The notes: generated by a model not told the origin, from the sequence alone. A stretch of DNA of 64,000 nucleotides from an uncultured Gemmatimonadales bacterium (GCA_963748815.1 CAVVKJ010000010.1:96001-160000), one strand, 5' to 3'; numbered from the stretch's first letter, positions 11,809 to 60,629 are shown. Numbers and translations: made by a program.

Positions 11809-11823
11809 TACGGCGAGCGAACG

Positions 11824-14536: not shown

Positions 14537-14570
14537 GGTGTGGTCGACCTCTGGCCTGGTGAAGACAAGC

Positions 14571-14597: not shown

Positions 14598-14632
14598 AAC
14601 CTATGCCGGCCAAGCCGAATCGGCCACCAGTC

Positions 14633-15130: not shown

Positions 15131-15171
15131 CGTGGCTGTTCCTTTGCGCTGATTGGGGGTCGAGAGACTCA

Positions 15172-36863: not shown

Positions 36864-39800
36864 TCAGTTGAACTTCGCCGCGCGCGCGATCCACTTGTCC
36901 AGGTCCTTCTCCTTCGGGTTGAGCGGCGTGCCCGGGTGGATGATGGACACCGGGCAGCGTTCCGCAGCGGTCACCAGCTGCTTGAAGGTCCCGGCCGACG
37001 CGTCCTTGACGTAGGCCTGCTTGTCCGCGTTGTAGGCGAACAGCTTCTTGTTGATGTTGGTGCACTCGTCGCAGGTGGTGCACCGATCGGAGTCGATGTA
37101 CGCCTCGAGCGCCATCCCTTCATCCTCATCCACCCCGGCCGGCGGCGTCGGTGCCGGCGCGACCGCAGCCGCGGCCGCGACGGGCGCCACGGCGGCGGGG
37201 GTGGCCGCGTTCGCCGCTGCCGGCGGAGCGGCCGGGGCGGTCGTGACCGCAGTACCGTTCGGCGGCAGCGTCGCGGCGGGGAGCTCCGCGAGGAACTCCG
37301 CAACCGCCGCCGAGCCCCCTGCTTTCGACAGCAACGCCGTGGCGAGCTGGCGGGCCATCTGCGCCGGGTAGCTGGCGCGGAGGTCGGTCAGTTTCTGCTC
37401 GTACTCGGCGCGCAGTGCGGCGCTCCGCGACACGAACTCCTCCTCCAGGGAGGCGGCCACCAGGTCGCGCACGGCAGGCGCCACCTCGAGCCCGGCGAGT
37501 TGCCGGAGCTGCGACCAGAACATCTGCCGCTCTTCCGCCAGCTGCACGATTTCTCGCGACACCCGCAACCGCCGGAGCGTGCGGTCCTTCGTCAGGGCAA
37601 GGATGTACGGGGTCAGGCCGTCTCGTTCCTCGGGGGAGAGGGCGAAATACTCGTGGAACGGCTTCATCTCCTCGTTCCACTCGCCGGCCGGCACCTCCTT
37701 GAAGTGCTGCTTGAAGCGCGCTTCGGTCGCGGCCCAGTCGGCGATCGTCACCGGCAGTTCCAGCGCCTCCTCCGACCCGGACTCGTCGAGGAACCGCAAG
37801 GTGTACGTCGGCCAGAGGTCGTCGACCGAGGGATTGCCCTCGAGGGAGAGCTGGTCGGCGTAGGTCGGGCCGGCGTCGGGGTCGAAGGTGAGGAAGGGGA
37901 ACGCCCGGCTCTCGAGCGCCAGCCGCGCCGCGTGTTGCGACCAGTCGTCCGCCAGGCCGTGCTCGACGGGGCAGGGGGTGTACACGTTGATCAGGACCGG
38001 CCGCCGCTTGTGCAGTCCGCGCAGGACGCCGCCGATCAGGTGCGAGGCGGCGGCCTGCGAGGTCTGGTGCACGTACACGCCGCGGTGGGCGATGGCGAGC
38101 AGCGCGAGCTCCTTCCGGACCTCCGTCTTGCCGTGCTGCGCCTTGCCGAAGCCGGACATGTCGGCCACCTGGCCGGTGAAGCCCGAGGTGCAGGCCTGGC
38201 CGCCGGTGTTCGAGTACACCTGCGTGTCGAGCACCACGACCCGGATCGGCTTGCCGGAGGCCAGCAGGCGCGAGAGGTTCTGGAACCCGATGTCGAGCAT
38301 GGCGCCGTCGCCGCCCATCGCGATGATCGGCGGGCAGAGCGCGAACTCGTCGTCGTCGAATTGGGCCCAGGTGAGGGACGACAGCTCCTCATCGTGCGTG
38401 GCCGGGTCGTAGGAGCCGTCGCGGAGCAGCTCCGCGCGCCGGACCAGCGCCGACGTTGTCGGCCATCTTTCGCATCTGTGCCTCGAAGAGGCCGATCGCG
38501 ATCGACGGCGCGTCCTGGAAGAGGTGGTTCACCCAGGGGAACGGGTAGGGGTTGTAGGGATAGGTGCTGCCCCAGACCGAGGAGCAGCCGGTGCTGTTCG
38601 ACATGCCCAGCGGCGCGCGGCCAGCCCCGCTCGGGCCTGCCTGGTAGCGCCACTTGAGGTCGCGCAGCTCGGCAATGGTCTCGGTCAGGCGGGCGAGCCG
38701 CTCCCGCTTGGCCGCATCCACCGGTACGGCGGCGCTTCCAGTCCCCTTGGCCGCGGCGTCGAGGTCCGCCCCGGAGGCCAGCAGTTCACGGGCGGAGCCA
38801 TCCAGTGCCGTGATCAGCTCCTCGAGGTGGGCGATGTGCTCCTTCACCCGGGGCTGCATCGAGGCGAATATCGCGGAGACGATCAGGTGGACCGCCGTCT
38901 TCTCGCCGCATCCCATGCAGGCGCCGTCGCCGCCGACCATGGAGCGATAGGTGGCCTTCTTGAGGAGGAGCGAGGAGAGCACGCCGATCCCCTCGTCGAC
39001 GTCGGATACGTTGACGAACCGGTCATCGGTGTCCGGCAGCTCCTGCCACACCTCCCAGTTGCGGCGCAGCAGCGCCAGTGAATCGTCGTCCTGCCGGACG
39101 GTGATGAGGGCGCCGTCGGGACAGACGTCCACGCAGAGGTTGCACCCCTTGCATGCCTCCGGATTGACCGTCACCGACAGCAGCCCACCGGTTCCCTTCG
39201 CCTTCCCCTCCACCGCGTCAAAGAAGGGCCGGGTGCGCGCCAGCGGGAACTCCGCCACCCGCTGCTGGACCTGCCCTGCCTCGGCGTCGGTGGCTGCCCG
39301 CCGATCCGCGTCCCACCCCATCTTGTCTGCCACGGACGCGTAGCCCTTCGCGAAGGCGGCTGAGACCGCCAGCTCCGGTTCCTTGGCGAGGAGCCGCTGG
39401 ACCTCGCGGGCCCACGGCTTGACGATCGGGCGCATCCGTTCCAGGCGGTTGCCGTTGGCGGCCGCGGCGACCACCGCGTTCAGGACATCCTCAGGACCGT
39501 TGACCAACCCCGGAATGGCGGCGTCGGGACACTGGGTCCAGCACTGGGCGCAGCCGGTGCAGTTCTCGGCGATGAAGGCGGGAATTTCCATCCGGACGCC
39601 GCTCATGTCGCGCACCGCGCCGGTGGCGGCTGGAATCGCGCTGATGGCGGCGAAGGGATCGGCAATGCCGTCCTGCCCGGTCGTGCAACTGGAGCAGACC
39701 TGCTCCCAGAAGCGGCCGGGGTTGCCGATGCCCGGCTGCGCATCGGCCACATCGAGCATTCGTGGGATGTGTGGCACGGCGCCGGGCGCGTCAGGCGTGA

Positions 39801-41925
39801 TGCTCGCGATTGCCTCGACTGGGTGCACCTCGTCGAAGCCTCGGCGGATGACGCGGACATTGTCCTCCACCACCGCGGTCCCGCGGTGGCCGAACTTCTT
39901 CTTCAGCTGCTCCTTGATCCCCTCGAAGAGCCGCGCCTCGCTCACTTCTTCCTTCTGGAGCATCGGGGAGGCCCGGAAGAAGGCACCGAGAAAGGCGGCG
40001 CCCTGCATCCGGTACCGAAGCTCGACGTCACTCGCCTCTTCCCTGGCGATGGCGAAGGCATCGAGCACAAACACCTTGATCTTCCGATCCCGGATGGTGT
40101 TGCGCGCCTGCGCCGGGAGGGTCAGCCAGAACGCTGTCGGGCGACAGGTCGGTCTGGATGACGAAGATGCCACCGGCCGCCAGCCCCGCGAGCGGGTCGC
40201 TGTGCCGGAAGACATTCGGGTCGGGGAGAGCACCACGTCCACGTGCTTCAGTTCGCAGTTCAGGCGGACCGGGTCGTGGGCGAGCACCGCGTAGAACGTG
40301 GTCGGCTGCCCCTTCTTCTCGGAGCCGTACTTCGGGTTCGCCTTGATCTGCATGCCAAAGAGCTCGAACGCCGTCATCGCGAGGTTCTTGCCCATCGTGA
40401 TGGCGCCCCAGCCGCCCACCGAGTGGATGCGGACCGCGGTGGAACTCTCGGGGAGGAGGTTGATGTCCCCCGCGGACGGCAACGACAGCGCGCCGACATC
40501 GGGATAGCTGTCCAGCATCCGCTCCTGCCAGATCTGCAGCTTCGGCAGGCGGGTGTCCGGCCGAATGAAGTCGATCCCGAGGTAGAACTGACGCTTCCGC
40601 GCACCCCCCGGGAGCATGTTGTCGACCGCCGCGACGATGTCGCCGGGCTGGAGGTCACGGCTGCCGAGCCCGAAGCAGCCGGAGAAGAAGTCGGGGATCT
40701 GAGTGGCCTTGAGGGCGGCTACGCCGGGGTAGGGGAGGTCACCGCCGGCCGCGCGACCATTCTCCTGCGCCTGCGACATGGCGCTGCGGAGTTCGCGGAG
40801 TATCGGCGGATCGACGGCGAGCGGCTGGTCGGTCCGCTCCAGCACCACGACCCCCTTCTTGCCGGCCAGCGCGTGGCTCAGCAGGTCGGCCGGGAAGGGG
40901 CGGAACATCGTCAGGTTGAGCACCCCGACCTTCAGCCCCCGCTTGTCGCGCAGGTAGTCGGCGACGGCCTCGGCGTTGGACACGACCGATCCCTGGCCGA
41001 GGATCACGTACTCGGCGTCCTCGAGCCGGTACCGGCCGATGCGGGCGTACCGCCGGCCGGTGAGGGCGGCATACTCCTCGAACGCCTGATCGGACAGGCC
41101 AAGGATGTGGTCGAAGTAGAAGGGCCGCTGGGCGGCGACGCCTTGCGCGTAGCTCTCCTGGTTCTGGACCACGCCGAGCATCGCCGGGTAGTCGAGGTCG
41201 AACATCTCCGGTATCCGGCGCCGGGTCTCGCCGAACACCATCTGCTGGGCCGGGGTCGGCGACGGGATGCGGTCGGCGGGGTCACCGAGGTAGGTCTTGA
41301 TGAGCTCGCGCTCCGGGAGGCGCAGCGATTCAATGACGTGCGAGGTGAGGAAGCCGTCCTGGGCGCAGATGCCGGGATTCAGCGAGAGCTCGGCGATGCG
41401 GTGCGCGATCAGGTTGAGGTCGGCGACTTCCTGGACGTCCTTGGCGAAGAGCTGGAAGAATCCGGTGTCGTCCACCGCGTGGTAGTCGTCGTGGCCGGCG
41501 TGCACGTTCAGGGCGTGCTTGGTGATGGCGCGGGCCGCCACGTTGAGCACGTAGGTGAGGCGCTTGCCGACGGCGGCATAGAGCGACTCGTGCATGTAGG
41601 CGATGCCCTGGCCGCTCGAGAAGTTCGTGGCGCGGAGGCCCGCCATCGACATGCCGGCGGTCACCGCGGCGGCGGCATGCTCCCCCTCGGGCTCGAAGAA
41701 GAGGAGGCGCCGGCCGTTCACGTTGCGGCTGCCATCGGCCACGGCGGCGGCCCACCCTTCGCCCATCTGGGTCGAGGGCGTGATCGGATAGGCACCGGCC
41801 GCCTCGCCGGCGGCGGTCTCCATGGCCACGACGGCATAGCTGCCGTCAAGCGCCTCGAGGGTTCCCGGGAAGGGAGGAGGCGCCGGCGCCTTCGCGTCGC
41901 GCTTGGGCCGAAAGATCGAGGTCAT
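36864..41925 (-). CDS. Large single-chain pyruvate:ferredoxin oxidoreductase-type enzyme with an extra C-terminal ferredoxin (frameshifts ~38450 and ~40140-40230)
   Basis: YPITPS, EGEHAAA, GGWGAIT.GK, YGSEKKG, CTGCAQC..CP, CKGCNLC..CP, ACMGCGE, TGCSSVWG, GGDGAM.DIG, DTQVYSNTGGQ, CTTCDEC...CP. Confidence 0.88.
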
Positions 41926-42761
41926 GCTGCCGCACTCCTGGACAGGGAAGGCTCCGGGACGAACTGGATCCCGTGGAGCCAGACAATCGCGCCGGTCGGG
42001 CACCTGGCAATGGCGTCCTGATCGGCCTGCGCATCAAGGTCGTAGTTCACCACTGCGACGCCGCTGGCGACGCTGATCAACCCATCGGCGGCGTCCTGCA
42101 CGCACTTGCCGCACGCGGTGCACGCCACCGTGCACTGCTCCAGCACCGCGTCGCCGTTGAGGAGATTCTTGCACTGCACCAGCAGGTGGGTGTCCGCCGG
42201 GAGCATGGTGAACAGCCCCTTGGGGCATGCCTCCACGCAATCGCCGCAGGCGGTGCACCTGGCCGGGTCCACGGCAGGGAGCCCCGTGGCGGTCATGGTG
42301 ATCGCGCCGAAGTCGCATACCCGCTCGCAGTCGGCGAGCCCCAGGCATCCCCAGGCGCACCCCTTGCCGCCCCCCGCCACGGCGGTGGCCGCCGCACAGG
42401 TCTGGAGCCCGCGATACTCCGCCAGCGAGCCCGCCACGTCGTGCCCGCCGGCGCATTGCAGCCGGGCCACCCGCCGTACCGCCGTGCCCGCCTCGACGCC
42501 GAGGAACCCGGCGATGGCCTTGTGCGAGTCGTCGGTGCCCACCGTGCACTGACTCGGCTGCACCAGCCCCTCGACCGCCTGTTCCGCAAAGGCGCGGCAC
42601 CCCGGCAGCCCGCACGCGCCGCAGTTGGCGTTGGGCAGCAGGGACGCCACGACGTCGATCCGCGGGTCTTCCCACACCCAGAGCCGACGGTTGGCCAGCG
42701 CGATCAACACCGCGAAGACCAGCGCCACGCCGCTGAGGATCAGGACCGCGAGCATCGTCAT
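41922..42761 (-). CDS. rnfB: Rnf complex subunit B
   Basis: TM, DPRI...LP.ANCGACG.PGC, CAWGCLGLADC..VC, CTACGDC..ACP, CTACGKC. Confidence 0.9.
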   Translation of the reverse strand: MTMLAVLILSGVALVFAVLIALANRRLWVWEDPRIDVVASLLPNANCGACGLPGCRAFAEQAVEGLVQPSQCTVGTDDSHKAIAGFLGVEAGTAVRRVARLQCAGGHDVAGSLAEYRGLQTCAAATAVAGGGKGCAWGCLGLADCERVCDFGAITMTATGLPAVDPARCTACGDCVEACPKGLFTMLPADTHLLVQCKNLLNGDAVLEQCTVACTACGKCVQDAADGLISVASGVAVVNYDLDAQADQDAIARCPTGAIVWLHGIQFVPEPSLSRSAAA

Positions 42762-43768: not shown

Positions 43769-44714
43769 AGCGATCGAGCTCCGCGTCGATCAGGGTGACC
43801 CGCTCTTCCGGCGTGCGGGGCGGGACTCGGCGAATCTCCTCGTACCGCGGCCGGGAGGGATCGCGGAAGAGGACGCCGAGATGGATGTGGTCGGTGGCGC
43901 TGGCGATGCGACGCGCGGCGTCGAGATCGTGCGGGTCGTGCCGCACCTGCGAGCGGTAGAGCTTCTCGAGTTCGGGGACCACGACGCCGTCGTCGTGGAT
44001 CAGCATCGCGATCTTGGCGGGGTCCTGCACCGCCGCCTGGTACACGGCCGGCGGAATAGATCGGGCAGCGCTGCAGGATCCGCACGAAACTCAGGCCCCG
44101 GTGGTGGTACGCGGCGCGCAGCGTGGCGTAGAGATGGGCCGGGACCCATTCGGCGGTCTGGGCCACGAACGAGGCGTTGGTCACGCCGAGGGAGACCGAC
44201 AGGGGATTCAGCGAGGGCAGCACGCCGCCCTGCGGCTCGTGTTGCTGGCGAATCCCTGCGGCGTGGTGGGCGAGGTCTGGTTCTTGGTCAGCGCGTAGAT
44301 GCCGTTGTCGAGCAGCAGCACGGTCAGGTTCACGTTGTAGCGAAGCGCGTGCACCCAGTGCGCGGCGCCGATCGAGGTGCAGTCGCCGTCGCCCATGACC
44401 ACGAACACCTGGAGGTCGGGGCGGGTGAGCTTGATGCCCGTCGCGACCGGCAGCGCCCGGCCGTGGATGCCGTGAAAGCCGTACGTCTTCAGGTAGTGCG
44501 GGAACCGGCTGGAACAGCCGATGCCGGAGACGAACACGGTCTGTTCGGGTGTCAGCTGCTCGGCGGTGAGCAGCTTCTGGACCGAGGCGAGGATGGAGTG
44601 GTCGCCGCAGCCGGGGCACCAGCGTGCGCGGGCGCCTTCGTAGTCATTGAGCTCGTAATGGGACTCGTGCTCGCCGGGCTGGAGCACCGGCAGGAGTCCG
44701 CAGGAGATCGTCAT
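43758..44714 (-). CDS. 2-oxoacid:ferredoxin oxidoreductase beta subunit (frameshifts ~44225, ~44050)
   Basis: WCPGCGD, SGIGCSSR, IHGR, GDGD, DNGIYALTKNQTSPT, LQRCP. Confidence 0.88.
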
Positions 44715-46607
44715 GCTGCACCTCCCACCGCGGTGCGCTCGCGGATGGCGTCCAGGATGGAACCGGGCCGGAGCGGCTCGCCCGGCACGCGGGTCCAGCA
44801 GTCGATGTCCACCAGGGTCGTGGCCCGGAGCACCCAGGCCAGCTGACCACGGCGGCGGTTCTCGTCCGTGATATACGGGTCGCCGGGGTCGTCGCTGTAG
44901 TTGATCTCGACGGTGCACACCTTGGCAAAGCGCGCAGAAGATGTCCTTGAGCCCCGGCTCGAGTGGCGAGAGGAAGCGGAGATGGACGGCGGAGACGCGG
45001 ATGCCCTCGCGCGCGCGCGCGGTCCACCGCCTCCTCGATGGCGCCCCTGGTGCTGCCCCATCCGACCAGGAGGAGGTCGCCCTCTGGTTCACCGTAGATG
45101 GGAGGAGGGCCGAGCAGCGATCTGCAGCACGGCGAGCTTGCGGCTCCGCATGGCGGATGCGCGCTGGTGAACGCCGGAGCTGTAGGCCACCTTGCTGCCC
45201 TCGTCGTGCGAGAGGCCGGTGACGGTGTAGGCGCCCCCCGGCTGGCCGGGGACGATCCGCTGGGAGAGGCCGGTTTCCGGATCCCACTGATAGGCCTTTC
45301 GGCCGTCCGCGACCGGCGCGAGGTCGATCGGTGCCGCCTGCCAGCTCGTGTCGGCTTTCGGGCGCGGGAAGGGGGTCACGCCGGTGGCAAGGTTGGCGTC
45401 CGAGAGCACCATGACCACGGTGCGGAACGCCTCGGCGATCCGCCGCGCGGTGACCATGATGTGGAAACATTCCTCGATGGTGGCCGGCGCCATCACGACA
45501 TGCGGGGCGTCGCCGGGGCTCGCGAAGAGTGCGGCGAGCAGATCGGACTGCTCCACCTTGGTCGGCAGGCCGGTGCTCGGTCCGCCGCGCTGCACGTCGA
45601 CCACCACCAGCGGAATCTCCGTCATCACGGCCAGCCCCAGGAACTCGGTCTTCAGGGCGAGGCCGGGGCCGGAGGTGACCGTGAGGGCCACCTTGCCGGC
45701 ATAGGACGCCCCGATGGCCACACCCACGGCGGCAATCTCGTCCTCGGCCTGATGGACGACGCCGCCAAACCGCTCGAACACCTCGCTCAGGTAGTGGGAG
45801 ACGGAGGTGGCCGGAGTGATGGGGTACATGGAGCAGAGTTCCATCCCCGCGGCGATCGCGCCCAGCCCGCAGCGCCTCGTTGCCGTTCATCACCACCAGC
45901 GCCTCGGTGATCGGCGGCGGCGTGACCTCGATCCGGAAGTCGATGTTGACCTCGGCCCAGCGGTAGCCGAGCTCGAGCAACGCGACGTTTTGCTCGTACA
46001 CCGCCTCGCTCTTCTTCCGGAAGGCGTGGGCGATCTGCTCCTTGATCCGCTCCATGTCCCGCCCGTAGATGCAGGCCAGCATCCCGAGGGCGAACATGTT
46101 CTTCCCCTTGCGGGGGTTGTCGACCAGCGTCAGGCACTCGACTTCCATCGGGACGGGAATGATCCGGTACTGCCGATGGGAGAGCTCCTCCATCGCGGCG
46201 TTCCAGGCGGCGCGAATGTCGGCGTCGTCGTGCGTGGCCCACTTGTCCTCGACCAGGAGCACGGCGTCGGGAGCCAGCGCATCGAGCCGGTGCCGCGCGA
46301 CGAGCACCTGTTCGTTGAAGGCCAGGACCAGGTTGGTGGCGTCGCCCCAGTTGGTGACGGGGCCGGCGCCGACGCGGATCCGGTACCCGCTGGCGCCCTC
46401 GGGCACGCGGGGCGGGGGCTGGATCTCGGCCGGGATGATCTCGACGGTCCAGACGCCGTTGCCCATCTTCGCGGAGACGGCGCCGAAGATCTGGCCGCAC
46501 TTCTGCGCCCCTTCACCGGAGTCGGAGACGATCTCGATGGTATGCTCGGCGAGGCGCGTGGCGGTCGGCGCGGAGGGCACGATGGTCGAAGAAGCGGTGG
46601 CGGTCAC
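44711..46607 (-). CDS. 2-oxoacid:ferredoxin oxidoreductase alpha subunit (gamma-alpha fusion, KorA-like), several frameshifts
   Basis: SGEGAQ, PAEI, KNMFALG, GNEA, YPITPAT, QAEDE, TSGPG, QRGGPSTGLPTK.EQSD, VEIN. Confidence 0.9.
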
Positions 46608-46620
46608 GGGTCGGTCTTCC

Positions 46621-46920
46621 TCAGGTGAGGGTGCCGAAGCGGCGTCGCTCGGCCAGCGGGTCGGGGGCGGCAGACGCTGGCGGCGAGGCCGGATGCCTGT
46701 CACGGCCCCGATTTTCCCGCAGCAGCGCCAGTTCGCCCAGCAGGTCCTCGTACACCTCGACGTCCAGCAGCACGCCGGCGGAGCGACCGTGCTGTGTCAG
46801 GATCACGGCGCGCTTGGTGTCGCGGATTTGCTGGAGGAACGCGGAGGCGTGCGCCCGGAATTCGGTGACCGGACGTACGTCTTGGGAGGGGCAGAGGCGG
46901 GCCAGTTTGCGGTTCGTCAT
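46621..46920 (-). CDS. Phd/YefM-family antitoxin-like DNA-binding protein, no adjacent toxin
   Basis: DVRPVTEFR..AS.FL.QI......VILTQHGRSAGVLL..E.YE. Confidence 0.85.
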   Translation of the reverse strand: MTNRKLARLCPSQDVRPVTEFRAHASAFLQQIRDTKRAVILTQHGRSAGVLLDVEVYEDLLGELALLRENRGRDRHPASPPASAAPDPLAERRRFGTLT

Positions 46921-48234: not shown

Positions 48235-48330
48235 GCGGTGTAAGATGCCTCGCCCGGATGTGCCGTGCAAACGAAGCCATCGGGACAAGTGGTGGGGGGG
48301 TGCGACACGGTCTCAGGCCAGGAGGGTACC

Positions 48331-48597
48331 ATGCGGGGCAGCGACCACGAGGATGAGGAAGGCGAGGAGGGGTCGGCGTGGGGTCCGGGAGGGCTCGCGG
48401 AACATCTCGACACAGAGTCGGAGACCGAAGTCGAATGCCCCTACTGTGGTGAGGTGGTCGAGATCGTCATTGACAAGTCGGGTGGCGCCACCCAGGACTA
48501 TGTCGAGGACTGCGAGGTGTGCTGCCGGCCGTGGAAGGTGCACGTCAGCCTGGATGTTGGTGGAGCGATCGAGGTGCGGGTGGAGCAGTCGGGCTGA
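48331..48597 (+). CDS. CPXCG-motif cysteine-rich small protein
   Basis: AGGAGG RBS; CPYCGE, YVEDCEVCCRP. Confidence 0.88.
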   Translation: MRGSDHEDEEGEEGSAWGPGGLAEHLDTESETEVECPYCGEVVEIVIDKSGGATQDYVEDCEVCCRPWKVHVSLDVGGAIEVRVEQSG

Positions 48598-48601
48598 ACC
48601 C

Positions 48602-48814
48602 CTAGCCGAGCAGCTCCCGCGCCCGCTCCACCTCGGGGCTCGGCACCGACAGCTGGACGCCCCGCGGCATCGCGCCCTGGAACGCCACGCCAAACACCCC
48701 CGCCTGATCGTTCTGCCTGAGCACCGGGATGCCGGCGCTCTCCAGCTGCGCCTGTACGATGTCGGCCTCGAGGCCGGTACTGAACGAGCCGATCTGAACC
48801 CACCTGGCTGCCAC
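48602..48814 (-). CDS. DUF2007 (PII-like) small protein
   Basis: EADIV...LESAGIP ... V.L.V....ERARELL. Confidence 0.75.
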   Translation of the reverse strand: MAARWVQIGSFSTGLEADIVQAQLESAGIPVLRQNDQAGVFGVAFQGAMPRGVQLSVPSPEVERARELLG

Positions 48815-49065
48815 TTCGATTCCCCCGGCAGATGTACGCCTTCCCCTCGAAGACTAACCGCCTGTTCGCCCTTTCGACCCCCCGCAGCGCCTCGGCTGTT
48901 CCCCTTCCGAATCCCGTCTTGAAGCCTTCCCGTGTGTCACCAGCACTAACCGCATATCGACCCACTGCCGCATAACGCCATATCTCGATCCTTCGTGTCA
49001 GGCAATTTGCTGCATTCAGGAAACATAACTCGTTGTAAATACACGATATAGATGACTGCACTTTG

Positions 49066-49081
49066 TGGTACGAGGGGTGCT
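49066..49081 (+). promoter_or_regulatory. Putative sigma54 (-24/-12) promoter of the DUF11 operon
   Basis: TGGTACGAGGGGTGCT = GG-N10-GC; AT-rich IHF-like tract at 49026-49038; ~100 bp before the first ATG. Confidence 0.6.
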
Positions 49082-49182
49082 CTCCATTGGGGAGATTCTT
49101 GTGTCAAAATTGTGGTCAGTTTCCCACGAGGCCAGAACGGGCCCCAAGCTGGCCGAAAACCGCTCCACCGAGGAGACGCCTC

Positions 49183-49707
49183 ATGAACCGCCGATTTGGC
49201 TGGACTCACCTGTTCGCGATGGTGGCCGTGCTGGCCCTGCCTGGTCTTGCGCATGCCCAGGCCGCGACCGCACCCCAACCGCTCGTGATGACCGCCACGA
49301 ACCTGATGGCCGGGGACCAGCGCCACAAGGATGCCGGCGTCACCGACGCCCTCCTGCCCGGGGACGTGGTGCGTTACGGCCTGGTCTTCACCAACCTGAA
49401 CGCCGATTCCCTCCGCAACGTCCAGTTCACCAACCCCCTCCCCGGCGGCCTGCGGTACATGGCCGGCTCCGCCACGGCGGACCGGGGGGACGTGACGATC
49501 GACTTCTCGATCGACGGCGGCAAGAGCTGGTCGGTCCAGCCGATGATCGAGGTCGTCGTGGAGGGCAAGACGGTGCGGAAGCCCGCGCCGGTGTCGCAGT
49601 ACACCACCATCCGCTGGACGGTCAGCGGCTGGGTGCAGTCGAAGTCGAAGGTGACCGCCGAGTACAAGGCTGAACTGCCGGCGCCCTCGGGCGCCCCGGC
49701 TGAGTGA
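49183..49707 (+). CDS. Secreted stand-alone truncated DUF11-like protein (gene A; putative chaperone or cap)
   Basis: GAGGAG RBS, signal peptide AHA|Q; LPGDVVRY.L.FTN, TNPLP..LRY..GS, FSIDGG, IRW. Confidence 0.75.
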   Translation: MNRRFGWTHLFAMVAVLALPGLAHAQAATAPQPLVMTATNLMAGDQRHKDAGVTDALLPGDVVRYGLVFTNLNADSLRNVQFTNPLPGGLRYMAGSATADRGDVTIDFSIDGGKSWSVQPMIEVVVEGKTVRKPAPVSQYTTIRWTVSGWVQSKSKVTAEYKAELPAPSGAPAE

Positions 49708-49770
49708 TAGATGCACGCCCAGGGAACGTTTTCGATGTCACACCATACCACCCACAAGGAGTTGAACACC

Positions 49771-51012
49771 ATGCGCCGCACACCCTTCATCCAGAGGACC
49801 CTGTCGGTCCTCACCGGCCTGCTGTTGGCCGTCGCGGTTTCCGGGCTGTACGCCCAGAGCCCGACGCCCGAGGGCACGGTCATCACCAACACCTCGACGG
49901 TGACCTACACCGACGCCAACGGCAATACGTACACGCCGGTGACTGCGTCGGTCTCGGTGACCGTCGGCTTCGTCGCCGGGGTTGACCTGACCGGTGCCGT
50001 CTCGGTGAGCCCTGCCACGCCGAGCACGGGGAACGTCCTCTCGTTCACCTACCAGAACATCGGCAACGGTACGGACAGCATCTCCGTGTCCGATGTGAAC
50101 AGCCTGCCCGCCACGATGGTCATCACCGGCTACCAGATCAACGGCACGGGCACGATCTACACCAGCGTGGCGCTGCTCAACGCCGCGCTCGCCGCGATCC
50201 CCGTGGCGCAGAACGGCACGCTGGTCGTCAACGTGATCTACGACGTGCCGTCCGGCCGCGGTGGCCTGCCGTCCACGTACACCCTGACCGCCACCTCGCG
50301 GCGGGACCCGCTCGTGAACGACTCGGCGGCCACCATCGTCGCCCCGGCCCTCTCAGCCGCGGTCGCCGTCACGCCTGACGGCGGGCAGAACCTGCAGCAC
50401 CTGCCCAGCAACGGCACGAACTACTCCTTCACCTTCACCGTCCAGAACAACGGCAACGGCCCGGACGCCTTCAACCTCGTCGCGTCGAACACGGGCTCGT
50501 CGATCACCATCGTGTCGGTGAACGGCACCGCCGGTACCAGCGCGGCGCTCGGCAGCATCGCCCCAGGCGGCTCGGCGCCGGTCATCGTGGTCTACACGGT
50601 GCTCAACGTCGCGGCCGGCAGCACCGACGACGTGGTGCTCACCGCCACCTCGGTAGGCGCTCCCGGCGTATCCGATGCCGGCTTCGCCGACATCACCGTT
50701 ATCCGGCCCAGCCTGACGATGCTGAAGGAGGCCTTCCGCAGCGACCAGCTGACTCCCATCGGCGTGTCGGATGTCGTGCTGCCGGGTGAGTCGATTCAGT
50801 ACCGGATCACCGTGACCAATACGGGCACTGCCCCGTCCTCGGCGGTCCAGATCACCGACCCCCTGCCGGCGCAGCTCACCTATCAGAACGCCACCGGCGA
50901 CGTCGCCGGCTGGACCTTCGGGTTCGCGGGCAATACCGTGACCGCCGACCTGGCGGGCACGCTCGCGGTTGGTGCGAGCAGGTTCATCTGGGTGCAAGCC
51001 CAGGTGAATTGA
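49771..51012 (+). CDS. Secreted DUF11/Ig-repeat protein (gene B; putative major fibre subunit)
   Basis: AAGGAG RBS, signal LYA|Q; N-terminal GTVITNTSTVTY; two N.GNG.D Ig domains; C-terminal truncated DUF11. Confidence 0.8.
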   Translation: MRRTPFIQRTLSVLTGLLLAVAVSGLYAQSPTPEGTVITNTSTVTYTDANGNTYTPVTASVSVTVGFVAGVDLTGAVSVSPATPSTGNVLSFTYQNIGNGTDSISVSDVNSLPATMVITGYQINGTGTIYTSVALLNAALAAIPVAQNGTLVVNVIYDVPSGRGGLPSTYTLTATSRRDPLVNDSAATIVAPALSAAVAVTPDGGQNLQHLPSNGTNYSFTFTVQNNGNGPDAFNLVASNTGSSITIVSVNGTAGTSAALGSIAPGGSAPVIVVYTVLNVAAGSTDDVVLTATSVGAPGVSDAGFADITVIRPSLTMLKEAFRSDQLTPIGVSDVVLPGESIQYRITVTNTGTAPSSAVQITDPLPAQLTYQNATGDVAGWTFGFAGNTVTADLAGTLAVGASRFIWVQAQVN

Positions 51013-51030
51013 GCGGACTGATCCGCTCGA

Positions 51031-54000
51031 ATGAAGTTCTTTAGCGCGGCGCATACGGCGACAGGCCGTTCGAGGCTCCATCCTGCCCATTGGGCAGGGT
51101 GGGGTCTTGGCGTGCTTGCCCTGTTCGTGTCCGTCGCGAACCTGCGCGCCCAGGCCCTGCCGGCTGGGACCCAGATCTCGAACGTCGCGCAGGTGTCCTG
51201 GCAGGACGAAAACGGGCTGGCCTTTTCGACCGGCTCGAACACGGTGGTGCTGACCGTTGGCCAGGTCGCGGGCGTCGATGTCGAACCGCCCCGTTCCTCG
51301 GTCAGCGACCCCGGCACGACCGTGTGGTTTGCGCATACCCTGCAGAACATCGGCAACGGGACGGACAGCTTCACCGTTGCCGCGCGCTCCAGCGCCGGCT
51401 GGCCGGTCCGCGTCTACCAGGACGCCAACGGCAATGGAGCGCTCGATCCAGGAGAACAGCTCGTCGCGGGACCGATCCCGCTGGTGGCGGGCGCCACCGC
51501 CAACCTGCTGCTGGCCGTCGATGTCCCCGGCGTGGCCACGGTCCGCGGCGTCATCGACACCCTGTCGCTGACTGGCACCTCCGAATTCGATCCGGCCGTG
51601 AGTGACAGCGTCGCCGACCAGCTCCAGATCCGGGATGTCGGCATCGCGGTGACCCTGGCCAAGACGGTCGACCGGCCCACGGCGTCCCCGGGTGACATTC
51701 TCTCCTATACTATTGGGTATCAGGCGACCGGCCCCGATTCGGCCGCCAACTTCCGGATTGCCGACCCGATCCCGGTCGGCGCGGTCTACCTCCCCGGCAG
51801 CATCCGGCTCAACGGCGCGCCGCTCACCGACGCCGCCGGCGACGACGCCGGCACCTTCGATGCGCTCAACAATCAGGTCGTCCTTGTCCTTGGAAGCGTT
51901 GCCGGGGGATCCGCCGGCACCGTCGGCTTCCAGGTCCGTGTCGGTGCGCTGCAGACGATCACCAACGTCGCGGGCGCCACCTACCAGACCGTGGCTGGCA
52001 CCGACTCCGTGGCCTCCAATCCCGTGCAGACCGGAGTGGTCGCGCCGGAGGCCACGCTCCTCAAGACCCTGATCAGCCCGCCGACGGCCCGGGTGGGTGA
52101 GAGCGTCCAGTACCAGGTCGCGTGGGGGAATCCCTCGCCGTCGGCCGTCGTGCTGGGCGCCGTCGTGACCGACACGATCCCGGCCGGCCTTGACTACGCC
52201 TCGTCGCTGCCGGCGGCGGTGGTGGCGGGGCGGGTGTTGCAGTGGTCGCTCGGCGACCTGGCGGCCGGAAGCACCGGCCAGATTCAGTTGACCCTGACGG
52301 TGGCCGCGAGCGTCACCGACACACAGCGCGTCGTCAATACCGCCACGCTCACCTCGCTCAACGCGCCGGAGCAGCGCTCCACCGCGTCGGAACTCCTGCT
52401 GATCGGGCCTCCGTCGCAGCAGCTCTCCCTGACGAAGACCGCCGACGTCATCGAGGTGAGCCTCGGCGAGACGGCCCCCTTCACCCTGGTGGTCGGCAAC
52501 CAGGGGACGGTGGACCTCACCGACATCCAGATTCACGATCAGCTTCCCGAGGGCACCCGGTATGCGCGGGGCACCGCGACCGGCGTGGACTCGGTCCGGG
52601 CGAACGGCCGGGACCTGACCTTCTTCATTGCCGGTCCGCTGGCGCCCGGCGCCGACCACACGGTGCACTACGTGATTGCGGTCGTCTCGGCCTCGTCCAC
52701 CACGCTGCAGAACACCGCCCTGGCCGTGGCGGGCGGCGTGGTCCGCTCCGCCGAGGCCACGGCCTCGCTCCGCGTGAGCAGCGCGTGGGCCATGCAGGAC
52801 CGGGCCGTCATCGGCAAGGTCTGGGTCGACGTCAACAACAACGGCATCCAGGAATTCGGCGAGGGCGGGATGCCGGGCGTCGACATCTGGACCGAAGACG
52901 GCGACATCGCGACCACCGATGCTGACGGCCGCTTCTCCTTCCGGAACATGCAGCCCGGCACCCAGCACGCCTTCCGGCCTGACTTCGGCACCATTCCGGC
53001 CGGGTACCAGATCGCCGACAAGGGCGTGGAGCGCCTGCTGGTGACCCGCGACGCCACCGGCTGGACCACACCCCGCGTGGATTTCCGCCTGGTGCCGAAC
53101 GCGGCGCGCATGTCGGGGGTGCGCCTTCCCCTCGGATGGAGCCTTGCCGCCCGGACCATCGGAGTCCCGACCGATACGGCGACGGCCACGACGCGACTGC
53201 AGCAGCGCGACTCCGTCGCCAGGAACGGCTACCTCGACATTCCGCCGCTCGAGATCCGGAACATCACCTTCGCCTCCAACAAGTACGCCCTCTCCCGGAC
53301 GGCGACCGGCATGCTGGACAGCCTGGCGCCCTGGTTCAACGCCCATCCCGACCTGTCCGTGATCATCCGCGGGCACACCGACGCGGTCGGCTCCGTGGAT
53401 CACAACCGGATGTTGTCGGAGGAGCGCGCCAAGGCGGTCATCCGGCAGTTGGCGGCGGCTGGCGTCGACTCGACCCGGCTCATCCCGATCGCGTTCGGCT
53501 CGACCAGCCCGGTCGCCGGCAACCAGACCGCCGAGGGGCGGGCCCTGAATCGCCGGGTCGAGCTGCGGATCGTGTACGCGACCCAGATTCGCGCTGTGAG
53601 CGATCAGATCGAGTCGCTCAGCGTCGCGCCTCCGGTGGAACAGCGGGAGATCGAGGTGGGGATTCAGAACAGCTACGGAATCCCGCTTTCCGACCTCACC
53701 GTCGCCTTCCCGGTCGCGCTCGACTCCGTCGAGCTGCTGATCAACGACTCCGTGGTGGGCCGGGCTGCCGGGACGATCGTGGCGCTGCCGATCATTCCCG
53801 CGCACGCCAGGTTCCTCCTGCGCGGCTGGACCGCGCGCGCGGATGCCTCGGCGTCGGCGGAACTGTCGCTGGCAGGCACGCCGCTGAGCCGCCTGAACGT
53901 TTCGCTCGCCGACTCGACCGCGCGCGTGGCGGCGGTGACGGCACCGGTCATTGCGGCCGACAGCCTCCCGGACATGGCGGCCCTCCCGGCCGGCGGCGAG

Positions 54001-57000
54001 GTGGCGATCACGCTCTCCGCTCCCCAGGCGGGTTGGCAGAAGCAGGCCACCTTCGCCCTGCCGACGGGGTGGCGGACGGAGGCGGACAGCACCGCCGCCC
54101 CGGCCACCGTGCAGAATGGCAACGGTGGCGAGGCCCTCACCTGGAACTTCTCCGAGGCACCGACCGGCCCGATCGAACTGCGGATGGTCCCGGCTGGTGC
54201 CGTGGCGCCGAGTGCGCCGGCCCGGATCGAGCCGCTCCGCCCCTCCGCGGCGAGGCTCGCCGAGCAGCAGAATGCGTTCCTGGCCGGGCCCGGCGTCGAG
54301 ATCGTCAGCCCGACCGACGGGACGATCCTGCGGAGCGACCGTGTGTACATCGGTGTGCGCGGTGAACCGGGCGCGCCGGTGACGCTGTTCGACGGCGACT
54401 CCGTGCTGGCGCAGGCCCAGCTCCGCCCGGACGGCGTCCAGGACTTCATTGCGGTGGCGCTCGCCGTCGGGCCGCATCGGCTCCGGGTGCGCATGAAGAA
54501 CTCCTGGTCGAAGGAGCGCTGGGACAGCGTGTCGGTGCATGTCACGGGCGCGCCGGCGTCGTTCGCGGCGGACCAGCGGCGCGTCGCGCTGGTGGCCGAC
54601 GGCCAGACGATCGCCACGGCGCGGGTCCGGGTGCTGGACGCCTGGGGCGTGCCGGTGGTCAACCGGCCGCAGGTCACCGCCGTTGCGGACGGCGCCGAGG
54701 TGGTGAACACCGATGCGGATCGCTCGTCGGTCGGGGTGCAGGTGACGGTCGACGAGGGAGGCTGGCTGACCATCCTCCTGCGCCCCGGACATTCGGTCGG
54801 GGAGGGAAGCCTCCGCCTTTCGTACGCGGCGCTCCACGGCGAATTGCCCCTCGACATTCTCCCCGCCGTCCAGCCGCTGCTGCTGACGGGTTCGGGCCTC
54901 GTCGGGATCGGCGCCAGCTACTCCGCCTACGGCGCGGTGACGGCGCGCGGCCATCTCGACGATCGCACCTCGTTCCTGGTGAGCTACGACTCCCGGCGGC
55001 TCGACGCCGGCACCGATGCCTTCGCGCGCAGCGCGGACCCGCTGGCCGAGGCGCAGTACCCGATCCTGGGCGACGCGAGCCTCTACCGGACGATGAGCGC
55101 CTCGACCTACCAGCTCTCGGCGCGCGTCGAGCGCGGCTACGACTGGCTCGCCTTCGGCGACATCGGGATCAACGGGGGCCTCGGTTCGGAACTGGGGCTC
55201 AGCACCTACCGGCGGGCGTTGCCGGGCCTCGCCGCCCGCTATACGACCGGGCCGGTGGTGTGGCAGGGCTTCGGCGCGGTGACCACCCAGTTGCTGCAGC
55301 AGACGCAGATTCGCGGGTCCGGCATTTCCGGGCCCTACCAGTTCGGCAGCACCATTCGCTTCGGCACCGAGCAGGTGACGGTGGAGACCCGGGAGCGGAA
55401 CAACGCGGAGCATATCCTCAGCCGCGAGGTGCTCACCCGGTTCGTGGATTACGAAATCGACTACGAAACCGGCTCGCTGCTCCTGAAGCGGCCGGTGCCC
55501 GCGGCCGACGCCTCCGGCAATCCCGTCTACCTCGTGGTGCTCTACGAGGCGGAAAGCGGCGGCTCGAGCAGTGAAGTCTGGGGTCTGCGCGCCACCGTGG
55601 ATGGCACCCAGTGGATCCGAAGCACCCTGTTCGACTCTGCACGCGTCGGCGCCACCTTCGTGCACGAGAGTCCGGATGCCGGCGGCCACCAGCTCCTCGG
55701 CGCCGACCTGCGCCTGGTCGAGCAGCACGGGCTGGCGCTGGGCGGCGAGGTGTCGTTCTCCGAGGGCCCTGACTCCAGCGGCACGGCCACGGCGCTGGCG
55801 GGTTCCTATGGGTTCCTCGGCGGGTCAGGGCTGCTCTTCGCCAAGTGGCTGGGCGTGAGTCGCGAGTTCGGGAATCCGGCGAACCCGGCGCTGCAGGGCG
55901 GCACCAGCGCCATCGACCTCGGCGCACAGTACAAGCGGGATGGGCGCGAGTTCCAGCTCGGGTACAACTGGCAGCGATTCGACATACAGGACCAGGAGCG
56001 GCAGGAGGCGCGGGCCAGCGTCCTTCAGCCGATCGGTGCCGAGGTGCAGGTGCTCGGCGCGCTGACGAGCCACCGCTTCCAGGGGCCCGACCTGGACGAC
56101 GAGCTCTGGGGCGCCGAGGCGAAGCTCAGCTGGAAGCCGGAAGGACGACTCGGAATGTGGACCGAGGGCCGGGTCGACCTGGGAGGCGACGGCGCGTCGC
56201 AGAGCCCCAGTTTCGTTGGCGTCGGCGCGTCGTTCGCCGTCACGAGCGCAGTGTCGCTCGAGGCGCGGCACCGGCGCGCCTTCCTCCCCGGCGACTCGGG
56301 GAGCTACAGCGTCACCGACATCGGAATCAAGACTCGGATCGGCGCCGGGACCGAGGCCTACGGCTCGTACCAGCTGGCCGGCGTTTCCGGGGCCGACAAC
56401 GCCGCCCTCGTCGGCCTGCGGAACCGACTCCAGGTCGGGTCGAGCTGGACGCTCAACACGCTGTTCGAGCGCCGGGTCGGGCTCAACGCAGCGGGCACCC
56501 TCGATCCGGTGCGGGCGGCTCCGTTCCTCCAGCAGGAAGAGGACTACTGGTCGGCCGGCCTCGGGGCGGAGTACCTTCCGCTGCTGGCGCCCTACCGGCT
56601 GAGCATGCGCGCCGAATTCAAGGACGGAGAAATCAACAGCAACCGGCTGCTGGCCCTCGCGGGCGACATCTCGCTGAACTCCGGGCTTGCCCTGCTGACC
56701 CGGCAGAATCTGCTCAAGACCGAGCAGACCAACGCGGACACCGCGGTTGTCGGGCATGCCTACGGGTCGTTGTGGGGCCTCGCGTTCCGGCCGACCCGCA
56801 GCAACAAGTTCAACATCCTGGCCAAGTATCAGTGGATCAACGTGCTGAATCCCAACCGGGGCAGCGTGCTGGGAGGCTCAGGCGAGGAGGGCCGGAACAT
56901 CCTGGCGCTCGAGGCCATCTACCAGCCGTCGGCCGCGAGTGAGATCACCGCCCGGATCGCCAGCCGCCGGAGCACCTCCAGCATCGTGGCCTCGGACGGC

Positions 57001-57328
57001 ACCAGCGTGGCGCTCAAGTCGCTGGCCGACTTCGTGGGATTGCGGGGGAGCCTGGTCTTGCGGCCGCAGCTGGAGGCCCGGCTCGACGGGCGGCTGCTGC
57101 TGGAGCGGACCAGCGGGGAGTCGCGCTATCAGATCTCGCCACAGCTCGCCTTCCTGCCGCAGCAGACGCTCGAAGTCGTCGACCGGGTACCGGTTCGGCG
57201 ACTTGCAGGACCCCGACTTTGCCTCCGATGGCGGCGACGGGTGGTTCGTGACCTTCAGCGCCCGGGTAAGCGAGCAGACCATCGCGTCGGCCGCCGACTT
57301 CTGGCGCCAGCGCTTCGGTGGAAAGTAG
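51031..57328 (+). CDS. Giant (~2,100 aa) DUF11x3 + SdrD_B-like + OmpA_C + Ig + C-terminal beta-barrel outer-membrane protein (gene C; frameshift ~57180)
   Basis: Three K..D..N DUF11 repeats, GKVWVD.NNNG.Q..GE.G, GHTD..GS..N..LS..RA / NRRVE; long amphipathic-strand C-terminus ending GYRF...WFVTFSAR in a second frame. Confidence 0.8.
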
Positions 57329-60300
57329 ATGCCCATGCCACGCTTCCAGCACCCGATCCGGCACCGGCGATCCCCCACCAGGGGCGGCTCGATCGTGCGC
57401 GCCATCGTGCTGGCCGTGTCGCTGGCGTGTGCCTGGCCGGCCATCGCGCAGGCGCAGCTCCAGATGTACGGCACCAACGCGAACGGCATCTACCGGATCA
57501 ACAGCGCGACGGGTGCGGGGGTCCAGCTCTACACCGGCACACCGTTCACCGGGGGATACGCCGCGGGCGCCGCCCAGCGGCCCAGTGACGGCATGCTCTT
57601 CTTCGTGGTCGGCAGCGGAGGCAACGACGCCCTCTATCGCTGGGACCCCGCCACACCCGCCACGGCGCCGGTCTTCGTGGGCAACACCGGTGTGCCGTAC
57701 ATGCCCCGGTTGGGATTCAGCACGTCAGGCGTCCTGTACGGCGTGGACATGGGGACCGACAACATCTACCTGCTGAACCAGACGACCGGCGCCGGCACGG
57801 CCACGGGCGCGGCGCTCAGCGGCGGGCCGGCGGGAAATACCGGCGGTGACCTCGCCTTCCACCCTGCCGACGGGTACATCTACATCCCCACCGGTACCGG
57901 CAACCCCTACACGCTCTACCGTGTGCCCGTGACGGGTGGCGCATTGACGAGCGTGTCCACCTTCTCCGGCATGCCGTGCGATCCGTCGGGTGCGGCCTTC
58001 GACGCCGCGGGCACGCTGTTCATCCAGTGTTCCACCTCGAACAACATCTACACCATTCCGCTGACCGGCGGCGCGGCCACGCTGGTGGGCGTCGGTCCGC
58101 GCGGGGTTGCAGGACCTGGCCTCCGTCCCGGTGCCGCCCCCTACCGTCACGATGGGGTTCGCGCCCGGCACCGTGGGAGCGCCCGGCGCGACGTCGGTCC
58201 TGACCATCACGCTCACCAACTCCGCCGCCGTGCAGCAGCGCGGGGCCGGCTTCACCCTCGGCTATCCGGCCAACCTGGTGAACGCCCCGACGCCCGCCGT
58301 GGCCACGACCTGCGGCGGCCCCGCCACCGCCGCCGCCGGCGGCGGAAGCGTGGCGCTTGCCGGCGGGACGATCCCCGCCGGCGGGAGCTGCACCATCTCG
58401 GTGACCGTGACGGCCACCTCGACCGGCACCTACGTCGTCACCCTGCCGGCGGGAGGCCTGCTGACGGTGATCGGCGCCAATGTTTCCCCAGCCTCCGCGA
58501 CCCTCACGGTCGGCGCGGGGTTTTCCGGGACGGTGTTCGAGGACGCGAATTATGGAGGCGGCGCCGGGAGGAGCCTCGCGGCGTCGGGCGGGGTGGGCGT
58601 GGCGGGGGCGCGAGTGGAGCTCTACAACGGGGCAGGGGCCTACGTCGGCTTCACGACCACCAACGCCACCGGCGCCTACAACTGGCCGAACCTCGCCGCC
58701 GGCAACTACACGGTCCGGGTGGTCAACCTCACGGTCCCGTCGGCGCGCGCCGGGTATGTCGCCGCTCTGATTCCGGTTCAGACGTTCCGGGTCAACGCCA
58801 CCAGCGGCTCGGCGGTGGCGGTGACCGATCGCGTCGGCGGCCAGGACCCGAACGTGGCCGACGCCGCCAACGGCGGGTCCGGGACCACGATGAACACCGC
58901 CACCGGCCTCTTTACCGCCGGCGTCACCGGGCAGGCCCAGTCCATCGCCACGGTCACCATCAGCGGAGCGGGCAATGTCACCGATGTGGACTTCGGGTTC
59001 AGCTTTGACGTCATGGTCAACCGGAACACCACGGGGCAGGGAAGCCTCCGGCAGGTGATGACCAATGCCAACGCCCTTTCGAACGCCGGGCTGGCGCAGG
59101 CAGGGCGGACGGCCGGTACCGAGAACGTGGTCTTCATGCTCGCGAATGGCACCGCCTTCCCGGGCACCAATGCCGGGTACCCGAACCAGTTCTCCGGCGG
59201 CGTGGCCACCATCAACCTGACCAGCGTCCTCCCGACCATCACCTCCGCGCTGGTGCTCGACGCGCAGACCCAGCCGGGGTGGTCAGGCGTGCCGATCGTC
59301 GAGCTCAATGGCAGCGGCGCGGGCGCGGGCGGCGACGGGTTCACCATCAGCTCCGCCAACAACGTGGTGAGCGGGTTCGTGATCAACCGCTTCGGCGACC
59401 AGGGTGTGATCCTCACCGGCGCGGGAGCCACCGGCAACCTGGTGGCCGGCAACTACATCGGCGTGAACGCCTCGGGCACCGCCGCCTCCGCCAATGGCAG
59501 CTATGGCATCCAGATTCTCGGCGGCGCCAGCAACAACACGATCGGCGGCACCACCGCCGCCGTGCGGAACGTCATTGCCGGCAACGCCTCCGCCGGCATC
59601 CGGATCCGCGATGCCGCCAGCACCGGCAACGTGATCCTCGGCAACTACATCGGACTGAATGCCGCCGGCACCGGGGCGCTGGGCAACGCGGCCGAGGGCG
59701 TGCTGATCAACAACAGTGCCGGCGACAATACGATCGGCGGGACCGGGGCGGGAGCCGGGAACCGGATTTGGTACAACGCGGGAGACGGTGTCGTCGTGAC
59801 GTCGAATGCCGCGGACGGCAACGCCATCCTCGGCAATTCCATCGCGTCGAACACGGGGCTGGGCATTGACCTGGGGAACAACGGCGTCACCGTCAACAAT
59901 GGGTCGAAGTCCAACAATCAGCCCAACGACGGCATGGATTACCCTGTCTTCACGTCGGCCTCGGTGAACGGCGCCCTCCTGACCGTGGCGGGCTACGTCG
60001 GAAGCGCGGCCGGTCAGTCCACATTCGGTGGGGCCCGGGTCGAGATCTTCCGGTCGGACAACGACCCCACCGGGTATGGCGAGGGGCCGGTCTATCTCGG
60101 CTTCCTCACCGCCGCGGCGAACGGCAACTTCAGCGGCTCCGTGTCGCTGGGCGGAGTGGTCGGGGGAGACCGGATCACCGGCACCGCCACCGACGCCGCC
60201 GGCAACACCTCGGAATTCGGGCTCAACCTCGTGGTGGCTGCCCCGCCGCCGGTGCTGGCGCTCACCAACATGGTGAGCCCGGGCGGCGCCCAGATGCCGG

Positions 60301-60629
60301 GCACCGACCTCACCTATACCATCATGTTCGTCAACAACGGGGGCACGGCAGCCACGGGCGTGGTCCTGGTGGATTCGCTGACGACGAGGGTGGACTTCAA
60401 GATCGGCTCGGTGACCTCGAATCTCGGCACCACCGGCCTCACGGTGGCGGTGTCCTATTCGAACAACAACGGCACGAGCTATGTGTATGTGCCGGTGAGC
60501 GGTGGTGGCGGGGCGCCCGCAGGGTACGACCGCAACGTGACCAACGTCCGGTGGGCCTTCACCGGGAGCCTGAGCGCCACCGCGCCGAACAACGCCGGGA
60601 GCGTCGGCGTCATTGGGCGAATACGCTAG
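57329..60629 (+). CDS. Large secreted adhesin-like protein: beta-propeller + Ig + SdrD_B-like + beta-helix + terminal truncated DUF11 (gene D; frameshift ~58100)
   Basis: Signal AQA|Q; GDLAF/LYR propeller blades; GSLRQ..TNAN, GN.IG.NA.GT.A..N beta-helix repeats, GNTSEF; PGTDLTYTI. Confidence 0.8.

Follow-up and report, generated by a model that had tools for sequence, protein, structure and literature searches.

The DUF11 domain, recently renamed CLIPPER, is known from tandem-repeat fibrillar adhesins, and its crystal structure (9IFR) contains an intramolecular isopeptide bond formed by a Lys-Asp-Asn triad in which Lys comes early and Asn late (PMC12617251). We analyzed four co-oriented genes, A, B, C, and D, that occupy positions 49183 to 60629 (+) of a 64,000-nucleotide stretch of high-GC DNA (hereafter, the window) from an uncultured Gemmatimonadales bacterium (GCA_963748815.1 CAVVKJ010000010.1:96001-160000) and whose products each carry a Sec-type signal peptide. 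The operon resembles the CLIPPER adhesins in domain family, as judged by hidden Markov model, and in the order of Lys (first strand), Asp, and Asn (late strand), but in the adhesins the domain and its bond belong to a single chain, and in the operon the two final strands, which include the Asn, lie on another polypeptide or at the opposite end of the same chain (PMC12617251). As far as the available portion of that report extends, it describes intramolecular bonds only and does not mention split, truncated, or strand-complemented domains (PMC12617251). We consider it very likely that the proteins of this operon join by hairpin complementation between chains, and probable that A to D together encode a modular surface fiber built through donor-hairpin complementation of a split DUF11/CLIPPER domain.

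Strand donation is also the basis of several other surface structures. In BsaA of Clostridium perfringens, a member of the TasA family, donor-strand exchange is followed by formation of an intermolecular isopeptide bond (PMC11580942), so that a claim that no bacterial system pairs strand donation with such a lock no longer holds, although BsaA achieves this with another fold. BsaA is like B in its N-terminal donor Asn, its acceptor Lys and acidic residue, its head-to-tail arrangement, and its self-made lock; it is unlike the operon in its fold, its single donated strand, its Gram-positive host, and its SipW peptidase, and the available text gives it neither an anchor in the outer membrane nor distinct proteins for tip and base (PMC11580942). 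No TasA-family match was found in A to D in Pfam and NCBIfam scans, which returned only DUF11-type and related immunoglobulin (Ig)-like families. Chaperone-usher pili (type 1 and P) have the same polarity, with a tip that combines a head and an acceptor-only domain, shaft subunits that are both donor and acceptor, and a last subunit that ends growth (PMC9715654, PMC11821415). They differ from the operon, for which searches turned up neither an usher nor a PapD-like chaperone and which has a two-strand donor, joints that could be locked covalently, and a base protein that is itself a giant barrel bearing an OmpA-like domain. Archaeal threads (Saci_0406 of Sulfolobus acidocaldarius) share strand complementation, intersubunit isopeptide bonds, and a neighboring gene for a cap-like subunit, but their fold is unrelated, their isopeptide bond links the N-terminal amine with the Asn of a subunit two positions along the thread, and there is no outer membrane (PMC9715654). 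In Pam pili of the Candidate Phyla Radiation, the tip is acceptor only and the terminator, which is tethered to the membrane, inserts its N terminus; unlike the operon, these pili have chaperone-like proteins, unrelated pilins, and no outer membrane, and the available text reports no isopeptide bond (PMC13278184). Together with haloarchaeal tafi (PMC11821415), Pam pili illustrate that strand-donation pili outside the chaperone-usher family keep emerging (PMC13278184). As described in the accessible parts of these reports, BsaA, archaeal threads, Pam pili, and tafi are all built without the CLIPPER fold, without a donor of two strands, and without a base anchored by a barrel. We found no published description of the A-to-D layout in the full-text literature outside subscription-only papers, in agreement with an earlier note on this DNA, which likewise knew of no characterized bacterial system of this kind. 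SpyTag/SpyCatcher, an engineered split isopeptide domain derived from a CnaB-type domain, is alike in that a strand carrying one triad residue is separated from its domain and reacts spontaneously; that pair is man-made, whereas the split in this operon is natural, conserved, and arranged in series.

The split is visible in family profiles. A complete repeat of C matches positions 3 to 109 of the 114-position Pfam DUF11 profile (PF01345). The last domain of B matches positions 13 to 84, ending one residue before the stop codon, and A matches positions 14 to 82, below the cut-off; overall, the profile matches of the last domains in A, B, and D break off between positions 82 and 85. Against the Pfam cut-off of 24.6 bits, B (48.0) and C (113.8) score above and A (20.3) and D (19.8) below, while A (36.5) and D (29.9) both exceed the 24-bit cut-off of TIGR01451, with only the front part of the domain present in each. 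What these domains lack at their ends is found elsewhere: the same hairpin motif begins both B and C directly after the signal peptide, and the whole length of B aligns to the N-terminal part of C. The strings that the earlier note had quoted, for the starts of B and C after the signal peptide and for the ends of A, B, and D, are all present in the translations, and the profile coordinates agree with its assignment of C as donor only, B as donor plus acceptor, and A and D as acceptor only. In an AlphaFold2 model of mature B the N-terminal piece consists of two strands (residues 8 to 15 and 28 to 35), and the donor is therefore a two-strand hairpin and not a single strand.

B (49771..51012, +), the proposed shaft subunit, has both halves. 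We chose the start codon common to its relatives, which gives a 413-amino-acid precursor and a mature protein of 384 amino acids. Its donor hairpin (49858..49965, +; mature residues 1 to 36) carries Asn40 of the precursor (nucleotides 49888-49890), while its truncated C-terminal DUF11 domain, the acceptor (50713..51009, +), carries Lys319 (50725-50727) and Asp363 (50857-50859), so that the triad is divided between the two ends of the protein. Accordingly, no terminal domain of A, B, or D holds a Lys-Asp-Asn triad within one domain of one chain, and the internal repeats of C do (Lys211, Asp245, and Asn312 in the complete domain at 51643..52065, +). The acceptor, that is, the last domain of A, B, and D, would thus be an Ig-like sandwich without its last two strands, and the donor, the first ~35 residues of mature B and C, would be exactly the missing hairpin; once the hairpin is inserted, the joint would read as one more domain of an ordinary tandem-repeat adhesin.

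Natural fission of C provides the strongest evidence that this pairing operates between chains. C (51031..57328, +; ~2098 amino acids once an extra base near 57180 is removed) is the donor-only protein and the proposed anchor; its hairpin (51154..51264, +) carries Asn51 and has a motif equal to the start of B. Among 51 loci in which the state of C could be classified, C is fused in 41 and split into two genes in 10 (L004, L007, L010, L015, L032, L043, L047, L060, L064, and L073, five of which were inspected in full); 21 further loci were unclear. The first gene of the split form encodes ~310 residues comprising a signal peptide and the donor hairpin and ends after the strand at which A, B, and D also end; in L007 it matches DUF11 profile positions 3 to 85 of 114. 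A new signal peptide leads the product of the second gene, whose mature form starts with the hairpin that follows residue 305 (nucleotide 51945) in the fused C of the window, within the complete DUF11 domain described above. When the split and fused labels were placed on a quick tree of the C-terminal part of C (46 rows), 4 changes were counted, at least 3 of which are forced by well-supported branches. Because the fission falls exactly at the boundary between acceptor and hairpin, the domain can be rebuilt from two chains. Judged from these sequences, one DUF11 domain of C apparently comes from a single chain in some loci and from two chains, exported separately, in others, and we take this to show that the acceptor/hairpin pair functions between chains in nature, as the earlier note had supposed of complementation in general. 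The split form is also of interest for how it is encoded: the end of the first gene overlaps the start of the second in a different frame, and the new signal peptide is partly encoded in this overlap, making it a tidy case of gene fission creating an export signal.

We next consider B itself. It has more than 1110 relatives that are 405 to 415 amino acids long. An exhaustive search returned 2621 proteins at E values up to 0.001, including longer ones (605 to 1192 amino acids) in which the B-like half finishes exactly at the C terminus. Across 29 aligned relatives the mature N terminus is the most conserved stretch and every sequence ends at the same residue. Asn40 and Lys319 are invariant in this alignment and Asp363 is kept in at least 90%; a set of 82 more diverse relatives includes 77 with all three triad residues. 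AlphaFold2 modeled the mature B monomer with a mean predicted local distance difference test (pLDDT) value of 97.6 and a predicted template modeling score (pTM) of 0.84. A two-copy model made with the 82-row alignment scored 0.73, compared with 0.00 for the best of three controls; of proteins with solved structures, 20 of 30 that were determined as pairs of one chain reached the mark used for such models, as did 1 of 23 determined as single chains. The hairpin was placed in the other chain in 3/3 runs, with contacts agreeing in at least 98% and a partner pLDDT of at least 94. The modeled interface is one-way, joining residues 2 to 39 of copy 2 to residues 283 to 340, 368 to 369, and 383 to 384 of copy 1, plus 182 to 187 and 250, and the triad residues (N11, K290, and D334 in mature numbering) all lie within these ranges. 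Since the interface runs one way, the hairpin of copy 1 and the acceptor of copy 2 stay free, as a growing chain requires. These models support head-to-tail binding of B to B, a contact that the earlier note had predicted and that is supported here as a modeled interface. On balance, we favor a B polymer.

Not every joint in the chain can be locked in the same way. D (57329..60629, +; ~1099 amino acids after removal of an extra base near 58099), the proposed tip, is acceptor only and consists of a signal peptide, DUF6923, DUF7933, SdrD_B, repeats, and a truncated DUF11 domain. Its conserved C-terminal acceptor domain (60219..60626, +) keeps the Asp and has Asn in place of Lys, so that in the window organism the tip joint cannot be locked by a Lys-Asn bond. 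Among 52 aligned D-like acceptors, Asp is found in 50 and all end at the same place. The last ~135 residues of D-like proteins are conserved and have this fixed end, and the remainder ranges from ~200 to more than 2000 residues and includes Laminin_G_3 with DUF2341, PATR repeats, Beta_helix, and fn3 or DUF11 repeats. On the sequences compared, this is what one would expect of a constant docking domain fitted with interchangeable heads. A (49183..49707, +; 174 amino acids) has a signal peptide, one truncated DUF11 domain, and a short tail and is likewise acceptor only, with no Lys; of 74 aligned relatives, at least 90% have Ala in the column that was matched by hand to the Lys. With Lys absent from both proteins, joints to A and to the window organism's D would be noncovalent. 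For this reason A may serve as a reversible cap, or as a holder of donor hairpins not yet assembled, and its lack of the Lys is what suggests a possible chaperone role. Where acceptor Lys and Asp meet a hairpin Asn, which in this organism would be from B to B and from C to B, self-locking by a Lys-Asn isopeptide bond would be possible, and we incline toward such a covalent lock.

From the polarity of donors and acceptors we infer the order D-B-C. D would be distal, presenting a variable adhesin-like head through its acceptor-only domain; B, donor and acceptor, would follow in one or many copies; and C, donor only, would close the chain and tie it to the envelope through its OmpA-like domain and barrel. 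By analogy with chaperone-usher pili, C would terminate and anchor the fiber, not nucleate it as the earlier note had proposed. The parts of C, which holds three or more DUF11 repeats, run in the order signal peptide, donor hairpin, DUF11/SdrD_B stalk, OmpA-like domain, Ig-like region, and giant barrel. The OmpA-like peptidoglycan-binding domain (53266..53553, +; residues 746 to 841) scores 64.4 bits with Pfam OmpA. For the C-terminal part we relied on a model of the last 958 residues of the orthologue in L001, the closest relative of the window locus, made with 46 aligned relatives (pLDDT 78.4, pTM 0.68). It shows Ig-like sandwiches followed by ~37 to 41 long antiparallel strands, with the barrel taking up about the last 720 residues, which corresponds approximately, as regards the start, to 55114..57325 (+) in the window. 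The best fold matches were large outer-membrane barrels (Deinococcus SlpA, LptD, the type 9 translocon SprA, and TonB-dependent receptors), at a low template modeling (TM) score of ~0.2. A search of the ESM Atlas returned unnamed clusters, one with Porin_4 in 33% of its members, which we treat as a lead only. No Pfam match to an autotransporter (type Va) family was found in C, and the model has about three times the strands of a 12-strand autotransporter barrel. We read the end of C, from this model, as a very large outer-membrane barrel of ~36 to 40 strands, which may also be the route by which the chain leaves through the outer membrane. Display of the fiber at the surface is, in our estimate, somewhat favored.

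Known assembly machinery was searched for in the organism's own genome, which is 86% complete. It gave no match for an outer-membrane usher (PF00577; an Escherichia coli control was positive), and none was found in the operon; nor did it give a match for a PapD-like periplasmic chaperone (PF00345) or a sortase (PF04203), and no LPXTG-like motif was found in A to D. The earlier note's remark that the locus has neither usher nor sortase thus extends to this genome, and to a PapD-like chaperone as well. A bolder reading would make the operon the representative of an undescribed class of pili in two-membrane bacteria of several phyla, which would need no chaperone, usher, sortase, or ATPase; its subunits would join by hairpin insertion and an autocatalytic Lys-Asn weld, C would be both terminator and translocon, fixed to peptidoglycan by its own OmpA-like domain, the fiber would leave through the ~36- to 40-strand barrel, and A would be a new kind of chaperone that holds hairpins rather than grooves. 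We offer this reading tentatively, as a real possibility that is less likely than not.

Several points weigh against a polymerizing, locked, and surface-exposed fiber. All of the evidence is computational. The two hairpins on their own (46 residues each, from B and C), searched against Pfam at E values up to 10, matched no family, being too short to score, and sequence searches of solved structures with one C domain and with a B profile returned no match; a Foldseek search with the B model gave generic tandem Ig-like matches only (TM 0.2 to 0.4). The two-copy result for B may reflect its likeness to solved intact tandem DUF11 domains instead of actual binding. The lock is not general, as Lys is present in 31 of the 52 D-like acceptors, with Asn at this position in the window organism, and the Asn is present in 28 of the 56 recognized C-type donors, while 7 more show no motif. 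In the B monomer, the hairpin was modeled at a pLDDT of 95 and the first 20 residues at 95 to 96, values that fit a hairpin docked into the protein's own last domain; a self-closed B monomer is possible on these models, at least as a resting form. The OmpA-like domain sits between the stalk of C and its barrel, so that a surface stalk requires the chain to pass the barrel. Finally, B is patchy, occurring in 23 of 301 sampled genomes of the phylum.

One rival is a stoichiometric adhesin, in which one D, one B, and one C would join by hairpin insertion as one long stalk on the barrel, with no B-to-B polymer, making a fibrillar adhesin in exchangeable modules and not a pilus. The fission and fusion of C show that joints and peptide bonds are interchangeable, D-like heads are freely swapped, and the genome has a single copy each of A, B, and the D tail, the operon itself being single copy; a one-to-one D-B-C stalk would fit all of the genomic data. 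We nevertheless regard it as rather unlikely, given that the B hairpin is modeled into a B-type acceptor with a high score and with free ends, and that B is far more conserved than the other parts, as major shaft subunits presumably tend to be. Self-closure of B, in which the hairpin would complete the protein's own last domain as a circular permutation and leave a ring-like monomer, with only the hetero-joints from C to A or D made between chains, draws on the monomer values given above, including a pTM of 0.84 for a multidomain chain, and on the precedent of self-complemented FimA monomers (PMC6615685). The two-copy models place the hairpin in the other chain every time, the donor-only C and acceptor-only A and D need partners anyway, and in tandem DUF11 domains the hairpin leads away from the previous domain, so that closure would presumably need sharp bends; we consider it highly improbable as an account of B. 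To an envelope-internal structure, a periplasmic chain that would tie peptidoglycan (through OmpA) and the outer membrane (through the barrel) to something else, we give little credence, because although it would explain the position of the OmpA-like domain between stalk and barrel and the lack of a separate secretion system in the locus, the modules found in D-like heads (lectin-like, PATR, and beta-helix) are those usual in surface adhesins, a patchy distribution suits an accessory surface trait better than an envelope tether, and a barrel this large could plausibly pass a chain or folded domains. We therefore retain the modular surface fiber, with B as its shaft, as the preferred reading.

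Gene order is consistent across relatives. In nearly all of the 80 related loci that we compared, A lies directly before B and C directly after B, bearing out the expectation that homologues would be colocated. A D-like gene is present in 58 of these loci, mostly ~440 nucleotides upstream of A on the same strand, and follows C only in the window and in L001. At the finer scale, B was found in 21 of 125 genomes of the window's family and in 1 of 5 other genomes of its genus, with the window genome (G000) left out of both family numbers. We considered whether B might be a core envelope protein and rejected this, given its presence in 23 of 301 phylum genomes and the genus figure just given. With the beginning of the barrel region as query, tblastn returned 13 plasmid records from Pseudomonadota and a cyanobacterium. 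One of these loci, at 1681-15188 of the mobilizable plasmid p4 of Acinetobacter haemolyticus (L087), is a homologous cluster followed by a transposase; it encodes a truncated A-like protein, several short B-like pieces that look like the remains of one gene, a 2008-amino-acid protein whose N terminus shows the hairpin motif, an OmpA protein encoded separately, and, last, a 978-amino-acid protein ending in a truncated domain. A plasmid of Eleftheria terrae (L088, 1-11283) encodes a 1405-amino-acid OmpA-family protein resembling the start of the C barrel region; its gene is preceded by one for a very large SdrD_B-domain protein and adjoins type II secretion/pseudopilin genes, and the N terminus of the OmpA-family protein does not show the hairpin motif.

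As given in the window, C and D are each frame-broken by one extra base. The extra base at 57180/57181 in C is missing from all public contigs covering the site (runs X1, X3, and X4), as is that at 58099/58100 in D (runs X1, X2, and X4). Removal of the two bases gives single open frames of 2098 residues for C and 1099 residues for D, with C ending at 57328 and D starting at 57329 instead of at 58107, the start assigned to it earlier. Both genes are open in L001. Two large oxidoreductase-like genes upstream (38389-42003 and 44208-46703) likewise read as frame-broken. Since the public contigs do not have the extra bases, L001 is open, and other genes of the window are similarly broken, we read the frameshifts in C and D as assembly errors and not decay; a decaying operon was rejected on the same grounds. 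The assembly seems prone to such indels, and broken genes of this genome should therefore not be called pseudogenes unchecked.

The genes flanking the operon are unrelated to it, and ~900 nucleotides (48289-49182) without a convincing gene separate it from the divergent gene upstream. A tentative sigma-54-type -24/-12 promoter-like site lies ~100 nucleotides upstream of A (49066..49081, +); the pattern, which was written after seeing the site, has 2 matches in the window, with 0.03 expected. Looser -24/-12 matches precede A in 6 of 73 loci and lie close to the starts of D-like genes, on their upstream side, in 8 of 38, with ~0.011 expected per 300 nucleotides. An NtrC-type response regulator (REC, sigma-54 AAA+, and HTH_8) is encoded upstream of the cluster in 36 related loci, and the operon may be regulated by sigma-54. 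No Rfam match was found in the 1.1 kb upstream of A, and a scan for sigma-70 promoters and terminators gave nothing above chance, the ~900-nucleotide gap having no sigma-70-like promoter.

The operon is real, conserved, and, as far as searched, undescribed, and it points to donor-strand-complemented pili with a possibly new assembly route. If the preferred reading is true, it would represent a widespread route for assembling pili or adhesins in Gram-negative-type cells without dedicated assembly enzymes, and would raise the question of how folded Ig-like subunits cross the outer membrane with no usher, for which the very large barrel in the anchor gene is a candidate conduit. It would also illustrate the division of a long repeat adhesin into interchangeable modules that are exported one by one and that nature splits and fuses at the joint, and could supply protein engineers with natural orthogonal self-ligating tag/catcher pairs. 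Gemmatimonadota are an abundant and little-studied soil phylum, and the fiber encoded by A to D would be a first candidate adhesion structure for its members.

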